In this document: piece by piece, positions 5,593-59,951 of the stretch
Numbering within the stretch: position 1 is the stretch's first letter
Layout of the letters: each line of letters begins with the position of its first letter
DNA from: Candidatus Omnitrophota bacterium
GTDB lineage: Bacteria; Omnitrophota; Gorgyraeia; Velamenicoccales; JABMQK01
NCBI GenBank assembly: GCA_028711115.1
Contig: JAQTSV010000001.1
Location: 1,368,928 to 1,432,927, forward strand
Direction: 5' to 3'
Length of the DNA stretch: 64,000 nucleotides
Made by a program: the position numbers and the translations under genes
The notes under the pieces: generated by a model
What the model saw: the letters and a program-made list of their open reading frames with translations, nothing else
Databases searched by the model: none
What the model was told of the DNA's origin: nothing

Positions 5593-7578
5593 CTACTTAC
5601 AGGCTTTCGCTGTATTTGAATTATTATTGTTGCGGGGCAGCGACTGGAGGAACCTGGAAATGATATCTTTCTCTCTATCGTTGAGACTCAGGAATTCCAA
5701 CCCCAGTTTATATTGCGTAGGCTCTTCAGACGGACGCTCCATATTCATCACCCAGGCAACACGCGCCTTAGCCAGAAGAGGACTCTTTCTGCTGGGGATA
5801 TCCAAACCTATGTCCAGCCGGCTATTCTCTTTAAAAAGGCTTCTCGATACCAGGCATATGCCGCCCTGTGAAATATCTGTGGTATGGGCTGATTCTGCTT
5901 TTTCCTTGGAAAGGTTGATTTTAACCTTGAGCTTCTGCGCGAATCTCTCGAAACGCCTACTTTCCAAACCGATATACATCCTCTTTATGTTAAAATTAGG
6001 GTAAAAATTGTTGCTGGGATGTATTTTTTCCTTATGCAGAGAAGATAAAATTCCCACATTGGCAAAAATATTTTCTTTCTCTTTTTCTTTAAAATAGTCC
6101 CTGATTCTTGAGCTCAATAAAATGCAGAGTTGCGCGGCTTGCTTTTCTTCGGTTTCGGGAATCACAATGCTAAACTCGCCGTTCTGTGTCTGGTGTAAGA
6201 ATAGCCGGGGCTTTAATTTATCCTGCTGGGAAAATTCATCGCAGGCAGACTTTACAATAGTCTGCAGGTCAGCGATTAATTGTTTCGGCTGAATTTTGAC
6301 TTTATCTTTTAACCCTTGGTAATTCACCATAAGCAAATTTATCAGATAAAACGGGATATTCTTTCTCAATAAACCATTCAAGTCCATTCGCAGCTCTTCC
6401 GGGATTATTTGTTTTGTATACAATAACGGCAAGGTAAAATAAAATTCGCTGCCCACTCCTAGGTGGGATTCAACCCATATCTGACCGCCGTGCCTTTTTA
6501 TCAATTCCCGGCAAATAGAAAGCCCCAATCCTACGCCTTTTTTCTCGGCGCCGGCTTTATTGGAAACCTGTACAAATTTATTAAACAACTTGGGCAAATC
6601 TTCCTGGGAAATTCCGATACCCGTATCCGATACGCCTACTTTAACCATGGTGTCCAAAACGCGCACATCGACTGTTATCTTTCCGTCCTGTTCGGTGAAT
6701 TTTATGGCGTTATTAATCAGATTAACGACAACCTGGCGTATCCTTTCCACGTCGATAAAAACATTAATCTGTTCCTTGGGTATTTTATAAATTATGTTTA
6801 TGCCTTTTTGGCTGGCTAATTTTATAAAGAAATCCGCGGTATCGCTAATGACGCTGTTTAAATTAACTAAAGAATAGCGAAGAGCGAACCTTTCGCTCTC
6901 AAGTCTAGATATATCAAGCAAGTCCTCTATAATCTTTTTAAGGCGCTCTACATTATCTTCTGTTTTGACAAGCAGGTCTTTTTGTTTTTCGTTGATCGGC
7001 CCGGCCAAATTATCCAGAATAAGCCTTACGCCTTCTTTTATGATTGCCAAAGGCGTCCTCAGCTCATGGGAAACGATGGAGACAAACTCGGACTTCATCT
7101 TGTTTATCTCCTGCAATGATTCTATCTTCTTTTCGATATTGACCTTTTCCTTCTCCGTGCGCTCTAACTGCATTCTGCGGGTAATATCCCTGGTGATACC
7201 CATAAGGCCGATAATCTTTCCCTTGTCGTCGTAACGGGGGACCTTGGTTGTGGAAACATAATTATCCACACCATCCGGCCGCGTGGCCCTCTCAATCTTA
7301 TCGATGATGGACTTACCTGTCCTCATCACATAGTTGTCATCTCTGGCCATCAATTTGGCGCGTTCCTTGGAAAAGATATCGAAATCAGTCTTGCCCACGA
7401 CCTGCTCAGGCGTAAGGCCCAAACCTTTTGCGTGGGCTTGATTCACTAAAACAAATCTACCTTTTCTATCCTTAACATAGACCACATCGGGAATATGATC
7501 TATCAAATCCAGGGATAGACGGTATTTGTATCTTAGGTCTTTTGTTCTGATTTTCTTTTTTGCTCTGCTTTTGATCAT
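5593..7578 (-). CDS. Cytoplasmic sensor histidine kinase: PAS - HisKA - HATPase_c - degenerate GGDEF-like - PilZ
   Basis: H-box SHELRTPL. N/G boxes NLINNAIKF, DTGIGI and GVGLGLSIC. A PAS-like N-terminus. QNGEFSIVIPETEEKQA sits in place of GGDEF. The C-terminal PilZ motifs RRFER and DISQGG are present. No TM segment is seen. Confidence 0.8.
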   Translation of the reverse strand: MIKSRAKKKIRTKDLRYKYRLSLDLIDHIPDVVYVKDRKGRFVLVNQAHAKGLGLTPEQVVGKTDFDIFSKERAKLMARDDNYVMRTGKSIIDKIERATRPDGVDNYVSTTKVPRYDDKGKIIGLMGITRDITRRMQLERTEKEKVNIEKKIESLQEINKMKSEFVSIVSHELRTPLAIIKEGVRLILDNLAGPINEKQKDLLVKTEDNVERLKKIIEDLLDISRLESERFALRYSLVNLNSVISDTADFFIKLASQKGINIIYKIPKEQINVFIDVERIRQVVVNLINNAIKFTEQDGKITVDVRVLDTMVKVGVSDTGIGISQEDLPKLFNKFVQVSNKAGAEKKGVGLGLSICRELIKRHGGQIWVESHLGVGSEFYFTLPLLYTKQIIPEELRMDLNGLLRKNIPFYLINLLMVNYQGLKDKVKIQPKQLIADLQTIVKSACDEFSQQDKLKPRLFLHQTQNGEFSIVIPETEEKQAAQLCILLSSRIRDYFKEKEKENIFANVGILSSLHKEKIHPSNNFYPNFNIKRMYIGLESRRFERFAQKLKVKINLSKEKAESAHTTDISQGGICLVSRSLFKENSRLDIGLDIPSRKSPLLAKARVAWVMNMERPSEEPTQYKLGLEFLSLNDREKDIISRFLQSLPRNNNNSNTAKACK

Positions 7579-33661: not shown

Positions 33662-34720
33662 ATGAGAACATATAATAAATTAATATTGGCTGTACTTATA
33701 ATATTTATCTCCCTGCCATTTTTCTGCGGCTACGCATCGCTGCAGAATAAAACCATAAGCGCCTGGCTGGCATACTGGGATATTAAAAATGGCATGTGGC
33801 AGCTCAAGAATAATTTCTTGGACAAGATAGACGAAGTGGCCCTGTTTTTTTATGCCCTTGATAAAGACGGTAATATCGTAAATATCGCCAAAGACCCCGG
33901 GGAATGCCGTCAGGTAATCGATACTCTGCATCAATTAGGCATAAAAGCCATTCCCGCCGTTACCAATGACGTCATCTACTCCGCCTCGGAAAAGAAAATC
34001 AAGGAGCCGCAGATACTGCACGATATTTTAAGCGATGAAAATTCCAGGCAGAAACATATCCAGCGCCTTATGGAGATAATAAAAGAGACCAATGCCGACG
34101 GCATAGATATAGATTATGAAAATATGTATACGGAAGATAACGAGCTGTTTGCACTGTTTATCAGAGAACTGGCCGATACGCTGCACGGCGAAAATAAAAC
34201 TTTGATTGTCACGGTGCAGCAAAAAATAGAAGACCACCGGAAATCCTGGGCAGGGACCGTCAACTGGCGCCAAATCGCCAAATACGCAGACAGGGTTACG
34301 ATTATGTGTTACAACTATTCCTCCAAAGTAAGCAGGCCCGGGCCCATCTGCCCTGCCTTCTGGCTAATAGATATCATCGAATTCGCAAAGTCGCAGATAC
34401 CTTTGGAGAAAATCAGTATTGCCCTGGGATTTTACGGCTACGACTGGTCAAAGGGTGAAGCAAATACTGTGAATTTCAGGCAGGCCAAAGCCCTGGCTGA
34501 ATCAAACAATACTAAAATAAACTGGGATAAAAAAAGCCAAAGCCCTTATTTTTCCTACTCTAAAGACGGCGCCGGGCACGTAGTATGGTTTGAAAACGAA
34601 CAGAGTATGGCAAAAAAAATACAAATCCTCAGGAAATATAAAATCCAAAGTATCTCCCTCTGGCACATGGGTTTATTAGACCCTGTCTTCTTAGAAGACA
34701 TTACATCATTTTCCAAATAG
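33662..34720 (+). CDS. Glycoside hydrolase family 18-like protein (secreted/anchored)
   Basis: N-terminal hydrophobic anchor. A DGIDIDYE catalytic motif (DxxDxDxE) and a C-terminal SLWHMG. Confidence 0.75.
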   Translation: MRTYNKLILAVLIIFISLPFFCGYASLQNKTISAWLAYWDIKNGMWQLKNNFLDKIDEVALFFYALDKDGNIVNIAKDPGECRQVIDTLHQLGIKAIPAVTNDVIYSASEKKIKEPQILHDILSDENSRQKHIQRLMEIIKETNADGIDIDYENMYTEDNELFALFIRELADTLHGENKTLIVTVQQKIEDHRKSWAGTVNWRQIAKYADRVTIMCYNYSSKVSRPGPICPAFWLIDIIEFAKSQIPLEKISIALGFYGYDWSKGEANTVNFRQAKALAESNNTKINWDKKSQSPYFSYSKDGAGHVVWFENEQSMAKKIQILRKYKIQSISLWHMGLLDPVFLEDITSFSK

Positions 34721-51214: not shown

Positions 51215-53338
51215 TTATTTCGAGGTAGGAAGTTTGCGGAGAGGCTCTAATTTTGTATTGTCCGTCTTTAATTTATTAATTTCTTTAAACCTTACATTCC
51301 CCATGAGTTCTGCGCGGTTAAAACGGTTAACATCAGTTGATACCCTGAAATGCACAACGCTTCTTACATTAGGTTCTGTGACTTTAGATATGGTTAAGGT
51401 ATGGGTAACATTCGGGTAAAGTATAGGCCGTATGCCTTGCGGCACAGTATAGCTTCCTGTGTTCGGCACTACCACATTTAAATCTTCTGACCATAGTGCA
51501 ACCATTCTTGAGTCGGCATAGGCTGATTCTATATCAAAGAAATTAGCCAAGGCCAATAAGACATTCTTGACGCTGAAATTGCAAGAGATGGGTCTGGTAT
51601 AATTAGGATGCCCTATAACAATTCTTAAGGATTCATTAGGTTCTATGTTGGTAGTCTGCCAGGTAATCGTAGGCGCAAAAGTATTTACAGTCCCTCCTTC
51701 GTGTGGATAAGTAATATTTATTGCCGGTATAAGCCAGAGATTATAACCCTGCCTGATAGTCCTGTCTTGCTGGTTCTGAGATATAGCCACAACTCCCCAC
51801 CACTCTTCATTCATATTCATGTCATCGTAAGCAGGATTAAGCCAGTCAGTCTCGGTGTCGTGGCTCGAAGGTGTGCCGTGACTACTCTTCCACCAGCCGT
51901 CTCTCCAGGAAAACATAATTCCGCCTATGCATACGCCAGGCGTAAAATTGGTGGAAAGATTTGCGCTGATCTCTGTCCACTGCGATGTTAAATAACTTAA
52001 CTGCATCGGCTGATTTTCCTGGCCGCTTCTGCCATCATATACATCACAACCAAACTCACTTATCAATAAAGGCTTGTTACTTAAGGTTTGATAATCACTA
52101 AATGTGTCACCGAATGATTCGCCCCGGTATAACTGCAAAGACCATAAATCCAGGTGCGGTAATGAAACATCGTCAGCATTTATCGTCGGGTCTCCGATAT
52201 CCCAAACTTCCTGGTCTGCATTGGCTGTGGTTACAGGATGATAATTTGCTCCTTCCAAAAGGTGGGCTTCTTCTGCGCACTCATCTACCAAGCTGTACCA
52301 ATCGTTGGGCGAAACTCCATTATCCTCGAGTATTCTGTTTACCTCATTTCCCAGACACCACATAAGTATCGCCGGATGATTTTTCCAGTGGCCAACCATA
52401 TCTAAGAAACATCTCTTGATATTTTGGCGCACCACAGGATTTCCAAAGTCAACTATCTGGTTCTGTCCATATACCGCATCCACAGGAAATCCCATAATCA
52501 AATAAATGCCCTGCTGATTTAAGCTGTCTAAAAATGCTCTTTGCGTAGGGCGCTTGTGGTAAGTCCTGACCACATTTGCCCTCATACTGTCTATAAGAGG
52601 CATATCCGGAGTATAATTCTCAGGATACAAAGACCAATCATAACCAGATCCAATTTCTCCCACGGGCGTAAATTCGGCTGAGACGCCTCTTACTGTAAAG
52701 GCGCTGCCATTAACTAATAATTGCCGGCCGTTCACCGCTACCTGCGTAGGAGTATATCCAGAAATAGGGATTTCCCACCTTACATAATCCACATAAAAAG
52801 TTGCGGCGCATTCTGCAGTAATCATAAAGGGCGAATATATCTGGGTTAAATTTGCATTAAATGCGCTGATGGGGATGGTGATTTCCTGCCATTCATTTAA
52901 TCCATTCCAGCCATAATTTGCAATGTAGCGTGTGCGCACCGGCCCATTTGGGCCTGTTTCCTTAAGCTCTACTTTCAAATTTACCGGGGTTTTAACAAAG
53001 AATCTTAACTGGCCCTGGCTATAATTAGAAAAATTTAAGGGACAAGGTTGGCCTCCGTCCTGCACATCAAAAAAGATTCCCCAACCAGCCCAATTTCCGC
53101 TTATTGTCTGAATACAGGAAACTCTTTCCGGCGCTTCCTGGTCTGAAATTGTATTGAAACTGCCTGCGCCCCCCTGCCATGTCCAGAGAACAGACTGATG
53201 CGGAATTCCTGCATCATTAAAAACATTAAATATGTCCGCCCAGCAAAAATTCGGCCCAAGACATACATCCATTAATAAAAAGATAAAAAAACTGGCAATA
53301 AAGATAAAAACTATATTTTGTCTTTTGTAAAACTTCAT
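51215..53338 (-). CDS. Secreted clan GH-A glycoside hydrolase/transglycosylase with N-terminal CBM-like domain; catalytic motifs resemble GH72
   Basis: Signal/anchor at the N-terminus. aa ~40-190 look like a beta-sandwich (FYVDYVRWE). The TIM-barrel region carries WCLGNEVN (E332, nt 52343-52345) and LLISEFGCD (E428, nt 52055-52057). Confidence 0.65.
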   Translation of the reverse strand: MKFYKRQNIVFIFIASFFIFLLMDVCLGPNFCWADIFNVFNDAGIPHQSVLWTWQGGAGSFNTISDQEAPERVSCIQTISGNWAGWGIFFDVQDGGQPCPLNFSNYSQGQLRFFVKTPVNLKVELKETGPNGPVRTRYIANYGWNGLNEWQEITIPISAFNANLTQIYSPFMITAECAATFYVDYVRWEIPISGYTPTQVAVNGRQLLVNGSAFTVRGVSAEFTPVGEIGSGYDWSLYPENYTPDMPLIDSMRANVVRTYHKRPTQRAFLDSLNQQGIYLIMGFPVDAVYGQNQIVDFGNPVVRQNIKRCFLDMVGHWKNHPAILMWCLGNEVNRILEDNGVSPNDWYSLVDECAEEAHLLEGANYHPVTTANADQEVWDIGDPTINADDVSLPHLDLWSLQLYRGESFGDTFSDYQTLSNKPLLISEFGCDVYDGRSGQENQPMQLSYLTSQWTEISANLSTNFTPGVCIGGIMFSWRDGWWKSSHGTPSSHDTETDWLNPAYDDMNMNEEWWGVVAISQNQQDRTIRQGYNLWLIPAINITYPHEGGTVNTFAPTITWQTTNIEPNESLRIVIGHPNYTRPISCNFSVKNVLLALANFFDIESAYADSRMVALWSEDLNVVVPNTGSYTVPQGIRPILYPNVTHTLTISKVTEPNVRSVVHFRVSTDVNRFNRAELMGNVRFKEINKLKTDNTKLEPLRKLPTSK

Positions 53339-54600: not shown

Positions 54601-56979
54601 CTAAAGATCGTCAAAAAGATCAGTATCTAACTTACCCGCTAAGACGCTATAAGGATAATCATAGCGATTAATATTACTCCCAATTACAACAACTCCTCTA
54701 ACCTCATCTTTACCTTCCTGCTGTAAAATTGTGGCAATAATATTATTCCTAAGCTCTTTATCTTCTGTCGTATAAAGATACCCTACAATTGAGTACCTTC
54801 TTCTTGGAGGCCCTGATAAAAAATTTACCCAATTATGCGGTTTCTCTGTTCTACCCTTTAGTATTCTTTTCCGCAATATCTCCAAGGCCTTAATGAATTT
54901 TTCTTGGTCTTCCTTTGTAGAATTCAGAAGTATATACGAAGTTTCCAACCAATTCTGGGGTTTTCGTCTATGTATTTGGATTAAGATATCTTTCCACCAA
55001 GTAGTCATACTTAATTCAGGTTGTGCAATGCTAACGCCTTCGCTTTTTCCAATAAAGAATGGGTTTAACTCAAAAGACTTTCCTGTCATGTTTAATGCAA
55101 TATCGCCCTTATATTCGCTCTCTCCAATATTAAAACCGTTATCCAAATAAAAACTAAGTAAATCCATTTCATCACCTTCATAGCGGAAATGATCTTCAAT
55201 CTCTCTCCTCCTTGCAAAATAATGAATCTTTTCTGCTTCTAAAGGCAAAAGTTCAAAAATCAACTCGATATCAGTTAGACTAATTGAAGGAGCTAGCTGA
55301 CCGATGGTTTTTTTCGTAACACCTGCGGCAATCATTTTTCCCTTCAAATTACTACTTATACTACCTAACTGAGATAAAGTAATTCCCAATGGAATGTAAT
55401 AATGAATATTTGTAGAATCAATCCTATTTTCTTCACCTCGCTTGTTCTTAAACACATGAACTTGTTTATTCCCTTCCAGTAGCGTATTAAACCGATGAGC
55501 TTGCTCGGAAGGCTCTTCAATAAGAGTTTTTAAAGTTTCAAACAATCGATCTGGCGCTCCCCGTTTCGCCGGCTTTGTCACTCTTCCAGATTTTGCCTCA
55601 ATAATAAGTGCAAAAGTATCAATAATAACAGTCAGATCATTTTCATATGGTATTTTACTCCCGTCATCGATCCACTGGCTCCCTCGACAAATTTGTGCTG
55701 TTGGGAAATTCAACCTGAACAATCGCTCTATTTCATCTTCAAGATATTTGGATTTAATTTCATTGTTGTATTTGTTAAGCAAATTTTCATCCTGAGAAAT
55801 TAAATACTCGAAGATTTCCATTACTATATGAGGGAAACTCCCCCAGATTGCGGTGTAAAAGTGATCTTCCCCTAAATCAATGAAAGGCCTAATATGGATA
55901 GGATTATCAAGAATAAGATACTCCATATTTGAATCCTTGAGATCTCCAAACTTGTATGATAGCTTGGCTAAAATATTTCTTATGTTACCTCTTTTGCTTT
56001 CATCCTTATACAATGAAACAACGTCATCCAAACTAAACGTATATATTTTGTCTAAACTGAGATCAGCATGACATATTAACAATGATAACAATTTTTTAAG
56101 ATTCTTCCCACACTTATTCCACATTTCTTCAATCTGCTGATCATCCATTTTTATCACATGTGGGAAGGCCTCTCTATAAGCTTCAAGCATTTCCTTACAA
56201 TTTCCTTTTTTGGCAAACGAACGTAATTTACTAATATGTTCATTCATTAGATCTTCGGTGCGACACGCCAACGAAAATAGAATATTAACTATTCTCTCTA
56301 TTTCCACGCCATACAAAATTTCAAAATCAGTCTTAATCATGGAAGCTAGATCGGACACTACTTTTTTTATTTGCTGAGGATATGCCCAATTACGCACAGC
56401 TATAGTATGCTCCATCATACTCACTCTGAGAGTAAATGCATGAAGATCTTCATCGCTTGTAATTTCTTCGGGAATATCTAAAAATCTCATTTGCATAAGC
56501 TGGCCTATATCTTTCAGGTCATTTTTTAAGCGTTCTGCATCATCAAGAAGAGGTTTAGGGGAAATGACTCTATGTTGAAAAAGCGAGAACGCTTGTAATA
56601 ATTCGATACAGTGTTGATATATTTCCAATTTTCCTTCAGCTTCTGGATCGGTACCCTCAGGATGTGACATAAAATAGAATACACAAAAAGATAGGATATA
56701 AAGAGCATCGTAATCTTCAAACCACTTTTTAAGCAAAGGATATTTTAATGAAAAATCCTCCTTTGCTTTCTTACCAATTTTTCTTATAGCATCAATACGA
56801 ACTTCTCTGGAGATTTCGTCTCGAAAAAGTTTGGGCATCTCAAAGAATTTCATTTTTACAGGTTCCCATGGCTTTATTTTATCCCTTCTCCTCTCAAGAA
56901 TAGCCCTACGTCTCTTTCTAGCATCGCGTTTCCGGCGAAGCTTCATCTTCCTTTTCTGATCTCTTGTAATTTTACTCAT
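54601..56979 (-). CDS. Uncharacterised 792-aa protein with central NERD-like PD-(D/E)xK nuclease motif and Lys/Arg-rich N-terminus
   Basis: A single uninterrupted ORF. aa 8-34 read QKRKMKLRRKRDARKRRRAILERRRDK. aa ~411-465 read KYLEDEIERLF...YENDLTVIIDTFALIIEAKSGRV (nt 55585-55749). The rest is unrecognised. Confidence 0.5.
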   Translation of the reverse strand: MSKITRDQKRKMKLRRKRDARKRRRAILERRRDKIKPWEPVKMKFFEMPKLFRDEISREVRIDAIRKIGKKAKEDFSLKYPLLKKWFEDYDALYILSFCVFYFMSHPEGTDPEAEGKLEIYQHCIELLQAFSLFQHRVISPKPLLDDAERLKNDLKDIGQLMQMRFLDIPEEITSDEDLHAFTLRVSMMEHTIAVRNWAYPQQIKKVVSDLASMIKTDFEILYGVEIERIVNILFSLACRTEDLMNEHISKLRSFAKKGNCKEMLEAYREAFPHVIKMDDQQIEEMWNKCGKNLKKLLSLLICHADLSLDKIYTFSLDDVVSLYKDESKRGNIRNILAKLSYKFGDLKDSNMEYLILDNPIHIRPFIDLGEDHFYTAIWGSFPHIVMEIFEYLISQDENLLNKYNNEIKSKYLEDEIERLFRLNFPTAQICRGSQWIDDGSKIPYENDLTVIIDTFALIIEAKSGRVTKPAKRGAPDRLFETLKTLIEEPSEQAHRFNTLLEGNKQVHVFKNKRGEENRIDSTNIHYYIPLGITLSQLGSISSNLKGKMIAAGVTKKTIGQLAPSISLTDIELIFELLPLEAEKIHYFARRREIEDHFRYEGDEMDLLSFYLDNGFNIGESEYKGDIALNMTGKSFELNPFFIGKSEGVSIAQPELSMTTWWKDILIQIHRRKPQNWLETSYILLNSTKEDQEKFIKALEILRKRILKGRTEKPHNWVNFLSGPPRRRYSIVGYLYTTEDKELRNNIIATILQQEGKDEVRGVVVIGSNINRYDYPYSVLAGKLDTDLFDDL

Positions 56980-57110: not shown

Positions 57111-59951
<2,841 letters not shown>

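Follow-up and report, generated by a model that had tools for sequence, protein, structure and literature searches.

The bacterial glycoside hydrolase (GH) families GH157 and GH158 were both founded on activity against carboxymethyl (CM)-curdlan (PMC6442616). GH157 was described as a family of endo-beta-1,3-glucanases (PMC10229575), GH158 as one of endo-acting or processive beta-1,3-glucanases (PMC7157763, PMC13195107). In GH158, a C-terminal immunoglobulin (Ig)-like domain packs on helices alpha7 and alpha8, and one of its loops helps to form the active-site cleft (PMC7157763). One enzyme, referred to as GH158(Pro), is only about 30% identical to the characterised members of GH158, and its catalytic residues Glu143 and Glu229 are experimentally supported (PMC13195107). 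Here we describe a gene of Candidatus Omnitrophota, located on a stretch of 64,000 nucleotides (contig JAQTSV010000001.1, positions 1,368,928 to 1,432,927; hereafter the window), whose product is related to both families and also to GH2 and GH72. Enzymes of this kind are well known, and the protein is already in the databases, where its name is generic and misleads somewhat; the identical NCBI entry reads 'MAG: glycoside hydrolase family 2 TIM barrel-domain containing protein [Candidatus Omnitrophica]'. New is the recognition that it belongs to a large, coherent and uncharacterised clade, which carries a diagnostic motif, sits between the four CAZy families GH157, GH158, GH2 and GH72, and is tied to beta-1,3-glucanase genes. 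Membership in GH72 is rejected.

Domain organisation and catalytic residues

An initial annotation of the window had noticed a gene for a secreted enzyme consisting of a signal or anchor sequence, a beta-sandwich-like N-domain and a TIM barrel, and had compared its catalytic motifs with those of the fungal GH72 beta-1,3-glucanosyltransferases. All strings it had quoted (FTVRGVSAEF, PLIDSMRANVVRTYH, QQGIYLIMGF, LMWCLGNEVN and LLISEFGCD) were found in the translation of one intact open reading frame (ORF) on the minus strand (Table 1), and the proposed order of the parts was confirmed by the sequence and by an AlphaFold2 model. For modelling, an alignment of 66 sequences was used and the barrel was also predicted alone. 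Residues 36-535 gave a predicted local distance difference test (pLDDT) score above 90; the isolated barrel reached a pLDDT of 95.8 and a predicted template modelling score (pTM) of 0.94.

The N-terminus shows a basic n-region (MKFYKRQ), a hydrophobic core of 15 residues and a CWA/D site, the Ala-Asp of which is invariant throughout the N-domain alignment. The adjoining N-domain is mobile within the family: some homologs carry it at the C-terminus, others have two copies, and in P0085 it is part of a GH53-dockerin protein. It matched only weakly to Exop_C (six members, best E 1.2e-5) and to the carbohydrate-binding module (CBM) CBM30 of CelJ (PDB 1wmx/2c24, E 0.025). This domain appears to behave like a CBM. 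The C-terminal region is beta-rich at amino acids (aa) 540-666, where confidence of the model is low, and ends in a basic, probably disordered tail (aa 665-707). A Pfam scan of these approximately 170 aa matched no family and the region was common to only one other protein, P0002 (E 6e-35, aa 538-668), so that the initial annotation had rightly left it unassigned.

Table 1. Features of the predicted glycanase gene and its product (nucleotide positions within the window; residues counted from the ATG start)
Feature	Position	Strand	Basis
Complete ORF, 707 aa, ATG start	51215..53338	(-)	read from sequence
aa 1-34, probably a Sec signal peptide or a membrane anchor at the N-terminus	53237..53338	(-)	sequence reading; helix predicted at aa 2-27
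aa 35-192, all-beta CBM-like N-terminal module	52763..53236	(-)	pLDDT >90; all-beta secondary structure (aa 36-189 in the model)
aa 197-535, (beta/alpha)8 catalytic barrel, clan GH-A	51734..52750	(-)	Pfam GH2_C and GH72 matches; barrel model; Foldseek matches to GH157, GH2, GH72 and GH158
N331-E332, Asn-Glu pair with predicted general acid/base, directly after beta4 (aa 324-329)	52343..52348	(-)	invariance; alignment to Glu143 of GH158(Pro)
E428, predicted catalytic nucleophile, end of beta7 (aa 424-429)	52055..52057	(-)	invariance; alignment to Glu229 of GH158(Pro) and E224 of LaGH157
aa 476-515, family signature after beta8, FSWRDGWWK-(27 aa)-NMNEEWWG	51794..51913	(-)	D480 and E512 invariant
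aa 536-707, lineage-specific C-terminal region	51218..51733	(-)	pLDDT <60; shared with P0002 only

In the direct translation, the motif LGNE ends at E332 (nucleotides 52343-52345) and ISEFG contains E428, 96 residues further on. Both glutamates are present in every one of 66 homologs, and at least 90% of the sequences have N331; D245, P322, L325, W327, G330, W399, Y404, G430, G472, D480, E512 and G515 are likewise invariant. The secondary structure assigned by DSSP to the barrel model placed E332 right after beta4, Y404 after beta6 and E428 at the end of beta7. Thus, the barrel has the features of clan GH-A, an acid/base Glu preceded by Asn behind beta4 and a nucleophile on beta7. This is the canonical 4/7 layout of retaining enzymes, and on the basis of sequence and model a retaining mechanism is predicted. 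The GNE and SEFG motifs read initially, 96 aa apart, have held up. A chance occurrence of the motifs was considered and rejected because they are invariant across hundreds of homologs.

In the alignments the two glutamates meet Glu143 and Glu229 of GH158(Pro) and also the catalytic pair of GH157, E428 falling on E224 of LaGH157, the Labilibaculum antarcticum enzyme of PDB entries 9fz9, 9g4n and 9g5g; BcellWH2_01931 is another GH157 endo-beta-1,3-glucanase. The nearly invariant Y260, part of an N..R.Y motif, aligns with Trp77 in the -2 subsite of GH158(Pro) (PMC13195107). Trp236 in the +1 subsite of that enzyme lies seven residues past the nucleophile, and the family possesses a conserved aromatic residue six residues past it (Y434, W in the consensus).

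Relatives, extent and gene neighbourhoods of the clade

When the protein alone was compared with the PDB, GH2 glucuronidases and galactosidases came first (E about 1e-11; best single matches 6ld0 with 2.3e-11 and 6u7i with 5.9e-11), followed by GH158 (1e-4) and GH72 (6e-3). With the family profile, GH158(Pro) (9oro) led with 100.5 bits (E 8e-28), ahead of GH2 glucuronidases (about 74), LaGH157 (9fz9/9g4n, 65), BuGH158 (6pal, 58) and the GH72 enzymes Gel4 and Gas2 (about 57). A Foldseek search with the barrel model gave template modelling (TM) scores of 0.74 for LaGH157, 0.60-0.66 for GH2, 0.62 for GH72 and 0.57 for GH158(Pro). The LaGH157 barrel superposed with a root mean square deviation (rmsd) of 3.6 A over about 358 columns at 19% identity, and the top chains included complexes with laminaritriose and laminaribiose. 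With the full-length model, the top matches were GH2 glucuronidases and multi-domain GH2 proteins at an rmsd of 10-18 A and a TM score of about 0.3; therefore, only the barrel superposes.

The similarity to GH158 runs from beta2 to the nucleophile. Over 163 aa (beta2-beta7) the protein is 28% identical to GH158(Pro), including KDHPAxLMWxLGNE and TEFG, while the last third of the barrel stays unaligned. In profile searches this third matched GH157 and neither GH2 nor GH158; a PDB search with the same third as a single sequence yielded only a spurious match to the N-terminus of a GH1 protein and was discarded. Beyond beta8 the protein reads FSWRDGWWK-(27 aa)-NEEWWGVV, the 27-residue insert being conserved in the family (HDT..DW.N..Y.D.NMNEEWWG). 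LaGH157 has FYYADGWWKGGEKSDHSLNQPEEWFGFWG in the same region, a shorter version that can be written ADGWWK-(13 aa)-PEEWFG, and sequences of the GH158 type have FSWGFKVESTATWFGMF. Of 213 full-length family barrels, 170 contained D.WW[KR] and 164 contained EEW[WFYC]G; neither motif was present in any of 75 GH158-like sequences, many of them incomplete. The combined motif D.WWK...EEW.G is common only to the family and GH157. Since similarity to GH158 does not extend past the nucleophile and the remainder matches GH157, the family can be described as joining a core of the GH158 type to a beta8 region of the GH157 type, with an insert of its own.

The clade is well separated. On a hidden Markov model (HMM) of the barrel alone, family members scored 190-495 bits over the full model, GH158-like proteins at most 97 and GH157 proteins 67-81; one sequence, P0086, was intermediate with 122 bits. 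When 1.84 billion representatives (clusters at 50% identity) were searched exhaustively with the profile, this yielded 1,591 proteins at E <= 1e-30, the best 150 all above 360 bits, and 4,944 and 13,215 proteins at 1e-10 and 1e-3, two sets that must contain GH2, GH158 and other relatives. At least 552 relatives were found among GTDB species representatives. The best 80 of these were all metagenome-assembled genomes (MAGs), belonging to Omnitrophota, Elusimicrobiota, Clostridia, the archaeal Hadarchaeota, Gemmatimonadota, Eisenbacteria, Myxococcota, Planctomycetia, Spirochaetes and, in one case, Bacteroidota. The proteins are built as a barrel alone, as a barrel with Ig-like/FlgD_ig domains or a type IX secretion system (T9SS) tail, as tandem double barrels or as giant multidomain proteins. 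T9SS sorting, Ig-like and PKD domains in homologs point to an extracellular location. Two or three paralogs often lie together in an array (e.g., L084 10001-13966 from Hadarchaeales and the metagenomic L086 5864-11458), and the divergence of such tandem copies suggests sub-functionalisation within the family. In the representative library, family barrels also resided inside proteins of 2,600-3,500 aa with several matched stretches (P0171, P0210, P0216, P0289); for Omnitrophota, giant genes with an implied role in the degradation of cell walls have been reported (bioRxiv 10.1101/2023.11.21.568195). Our literature search disclosed no description of the clade or of a newly founded family covering it, and searches on GH72 in these phyla, on LaGH157 and on the PDB codes gave nothing relevant.

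In MAGs of the Elusimicrobia type (L057, L060, L062, L065) a co-directional array ends with a GH81 gene, a family member and a GH157 gene. GH81 is a family of endo-beta-1,3-glucanases (PMC9609564). The GH81 product of the array (Glyco_hydro81C, E 3e-61) possesses a T9SS secretion tail, and the GH157 product matches LaGH157 with an E value of 6e-44. The latter is a distinct type of paralog, scoring 81 bits on the family HMM versus 250-290 bits for the adjoining family members. Four MAGs of Hadarchaeota have, a few kb upstream of one or two family members, a gene for a GH94 phosphorylase of disaccharides or oligosaccharides; NCBIfam assigned no subtype (cellobiose versus laminaribiose phosphorylase) to it. 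Both associations fit an extracellular depolymerisation of beta-glucan, and since the family member stands between GH81 and GH157, the first is a pointer to beta-1,3-glucan specifically.

Four conserved ORFs of about 200-260 aa, followed by a gene for a protein similar to fn3/purple-acid-phosphatase N-terminal domains, precede the cluster of GH81, family member and GH157 in two MAGs in a syntenic arrangement (L065 305-3466, L062 214-3419). No Pfam family was matched by the four ORFs. They may be components of a beta-1,3-glucan utilisation system of Elusimicrobia.

Assignment and probable function

Very probably, the protein is an exported, catalytically competent and retaining glycanase of clan GH-A with the predicted catalytic pair E332/E428. 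The clade probably constitutes a candidate family-level lineage distinct from GH2, GH72, GH157 and GH158, as the protein does not have the full set of properties of any of them. Including beta-1,3-glucan as the substrate, we give the whole reading a probability of roughly 55%.

Following this reading, a Sec signal peptide or anchor would export the protein, which would be secreted or anchored in the envelope, and the CBM-like beta-sandwich could aid in targeting polysaccharides. In the barrel, a beta-glycosidic linkage would be cut through a double displacement of the Koshland type. E428 would attack the anomeric carbon and thereby form the covalent glycosyl-enzyme intermediate; E332 would serve as general acid and then as general base. 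By analogy with N136 of BuGH158 (PMC7157763), N331 may form a hydrogen bond with the substrate. Y404, located just past beta6, probably stands beside the nucleophile, while Y260 is expected at the position of the -2 subsite Trp of GH158(Pro) and Y434 roughly at that of its +1 subsite Trp. As substrate, a beta-1,3-glucan is the most likely (laminarin, wall glucan of fungi or algae, or a curdlan-like polymer), which would be cleaved in the endo mode in an open cleft. Hydrolysis is more probable than a transfer like that of GH72 because the gene contexts of the family look degradative.

Several points weigh against this reading. The clade contains no characterised member, and substrate and linkage are deduced from relatives with 16-28% identity and from gene neighbourhoods only. 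The gene itself and its closest homologs are stand-alone genes in housekeeping surroundings, which give no functional clue, and the members linked by neighbourhood are 28-45% identical to the protein. All clusters with GH81 and GH157 originate from one related lineage of the Elusimicrobia type. Because the family member in them is 28-30% identical to the protein and lacks the N-domain, function can be transferred at the level of the family but not by orthology. Moreover, with an endo-1,3-glucanase on either side, the enzyme might just as well complement them by beta-1,6 debranching, exo-action or cleavage of mixed linkages. The N-domain also occurs on a protein of the galactanase family GH53 with a dockerin, and its best PDB match, of marginal significance, is a CBM30 binding cellulose and mixed-linkage glucan. 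Finally, GH2, a family with quite different exo-specificities, outscores GH157 and GH72 in sequence searches.

This last point leads to the reading of the protein as a divergent GH2-type exo-glycosidase resembling beta-galactosidases, beta-glucuronidases or beta-mannosidases, the N-terminal beta-sandwich of which would be the sugar-binding domain. GH2_C (PF02836) is the best Pfam match (46.9 bits at a cut-off of 21, E 2.6e-12, profile positions 1-224 of 302) and was matched by all 66 homologs; the best single-sequence PDB matches, the full-length Foldseek matches and the NCBI name agree with it. Like GH2, the protein has a beta-sandwich before the barrel and conserves segments such as N..R.[ST]HYP and K[DN]HP..[IV].W..[GA]NE. 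However, this beta-sandwich is a single one, unlike the GH2 architecture. The sugar-binding (PF02837) and Ig-like (PF00703) domains of GH2 were absent at E <= 10, and the NCBIfam models for GH2 scored 12-31 bits, far short of cut-offs of 544-2000, for which reasons true GH2 membership was rejected. Outside the barrel the superposition fails. With the barrel alone GH157 surpasses every GH2 chain, with the family profile GH158 surpasses GH2, and the third behind the nucleophile is of the GH157 type. We therefore regard a GH2 exo-glycosidase as improbable. Still less credit is due to a bacterial GH72-type beta-1,3-glucanosyltransferase, which would split glucan, transfer the new reducing end to glucan and thereby remodel rather than degrade it. 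The similarity to GH72 does lie above background, contrary to the outcome by which the initial annotation would have been refuted: PF03198 matched the protein at aa 200-476 with 27.7 bits (gathering score 25.9, E 2.1e-6) and was recovered in 56 of the 66 homologs (best E 1.1e-13) but in none of the GH158(Pro)-like proteins. Both groups have a clan GH-A barrel, the motifs N..R.Y, GNE and SE[FY]G and plausibly the same class of substrate. In Gas2 the two glutamates, E176, named in the title of PDB entry 5fih, and E275, the nucleophile, are 99 aa apart (96 aa here), and the family-profile alignment to Gas2 ends three residues past the position of E275. A superposition on Gas2, which the initial annotation had suggested, resulted in a TM score of 0.62 over about 370 columns, as did one on Gel4; this confirms a resemblance but ranks behind GH157. 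With 16% identity and the lowest profile score, GH72 is the weakest of the four relatives, and GH2_C outscored PF03198 in 66 of 66 homologs. An X8/CBM43 domain was not matched at E <= 10, and the basic, hydrophilic C-terminus is unlike the hydrophobic signal for a glycosylphosphatidylinositol (GPI) anchor. On account of this ranking and the missing X8 and GPI features, true GH72 membership was rejected. The distribution is prokaryotic, and the family resides in degradative-looking clusters (GH81 and GH157 with secretion tails) or near GH94 and was seen in no glucan-synthesis locus, a context of degradation rather than wall remodelling, although the choice between transfer and hydrolysis cannot be read from a sequence. 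Thus, the motif set reported initially is present but belongs to the whole GH2/GH72/GH157/GH158 subgroup of GH-A. Of the two proposals made for it, a distant relative of GH72 or a new GH-A family, the data support the second and not the first. There is no need to invoke the appearance of a fungal family in bacteria, since the closest relatives are beta-1,3-glucanase families that are themselves bacterial.

A more serious competitor, if still an unlikely one, is a far-diverged form of GH157 or GH158 that CAZy would file there, which would make the protein an ordinary laminarinase. GH158 is internally very diverse (PMC13195107), and it gave the highest profile score along with the 28% identity described above. 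Many family members consist, as in GH158, of a barrel and a C-terminal Ig-like domain; some have FlgD_ig or Big domains behind the barrel, a place where our protein has the beta-rich region of low pLDDT. GH157 provides the best structural match. The family HMM aligns LaGH157 over the whole barrel, the NE acid/base, the [ST]EFG nucleophile and the beta8 motif are the same, public records give both the generic label 'GH2 catalytic/TIM-barrel domain', and P0086 is intermediate. Against GH158 stands that the alignment halts at the nucleophile, that D.WWK...EEWWG occurs in 0 of 75 GH158-type sequences, which read FSWGxKxExTxTWFGMF between beta7 and beta8, that the TM score was only 0.57 and that PF03198 is usual in the family. 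GH157 differs in the length of the insert (13 versus 27 residues), in the context of the acid/base (VINEPQ versus LGNEVN) and, as far as LaGH157 is concerned, in the lack of an N-terminal CBM-like module. LaGH157 was not among the phmmer matches of the protein at E <= 10, whereas a genuine GH157 (L065 9169-11109) found it at 6e-44, and the GH157 products adjoining family members stay far below the latter on the family HMM. Fold and beta8 motif thus denote resemblance to GH157 and not membership. The structure-based identity to both families is 19-20%, around the level of <20% that the authors of CAZy treat as 'not assignable' (PMC6442616); by this yardstick, the clade would count as 'non-classified' or 'distant'.

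A close ortholog of LaGH157 (about 97% identical over the compared segment) was encountered on a metagenomic contig of 122 kb (L002 3405-4832), where it is split into three frameshifted ORFs, probably by an assembly or sequencing error and not as a pseudogene.

Going beyond the preferred reading of a beta-1,3-glucan-degrading lineage, the clade, which occurs almost exclusively in uncultured bacteria and archaea, might be a new CAZy-level GH-A family at the root of the GH157/GH158/GH72/GH2 subgroup with an activity not yet described for these families, which we consider doubtful, somewhat more so than a place within GH157 or GH158. Examples would be an enzyme modifying or debranching beta-1,3-glucan as a complement to GH81 and GH157, or a prokaryotic glucanosyltransferase. 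The latter would be a bacterial counterpart, possibly even the evolutionary source, of the fungal GH72 enzymes for wall remodelling.

Surroundings of the gene and significance

The gene is flanked by nadA and mnmA, followed by Rnf genes, biotin genes and a gene for a major facilitator superfamily (MFS) transporter. Directly upstream of mnmA, an ORF of 792 aa (54601-56979, minus strand) has an extremely basic N-terminus (KRKMKLRRKRDARKRRRAILERRRDK) and matched no Pfam family at E <= 1e-5. An ORF of 689 aa (57111-59180, minus strand), by its sequence, looks like a fusion in which a dethiobiotin synthetase (BioD-like N-terminus) is joined to an aminotransferase of the BioA type; ORFs resembling bioC (methyltransferase) and bioH (hydrolase) come next. 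Farther away, at 5593-7578 (minus strand), the window contains a histidine kinase with an unusual fusion of PAS, HisKA, HATPase_c and a C-terminal PilZ domain, which binds cyclic di-GMP (c-di-GMP). A chitinase-like GH18 ORF of 352 aa (33662-34720, plus strand; PF00704, E 3.5e-31) with an intact catalytic motif DGIDIDYE and a hydrophobic N-terminal signal or anchor is located about 17 kb from the glucanase candidate and does not share an operon with it. A GH18 enzyme and a putative beta-1,3-glucanase would suit an attack on walls of chitin and glucan, as in fungi.

No established idea is overturned by these data. With this clade, a new branch is added to a clan of enzymes that is well understood, and it will cause little surprise to the specialist. 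CAZy would gain a clearly delimited candidate family, recognisable by its catalytic residues and its diagnostic motif and well suited to biochemical study, and the family helps to show how the barrels of GH157, GH158, GH72 and GH2 are related. About 1,600 representatives are publicly named after the 'GH2 TIM-barrel domain'; therefore, pipelines based on Pfam could label such proteins as GH2 or as bacterial GH72, and in metagenome surveys either label would mislead. Laminarin and the glucans of fungi and algae are major carbon pools. Recognition of the clade as a discrete family with a likely link to beta-1,3-glucan would sharpen the inference of carbon cycling by Omnitrophota, Elusimicrobiota, Hadarchaeota, Gemmatimonadota and other uncultured lineages.

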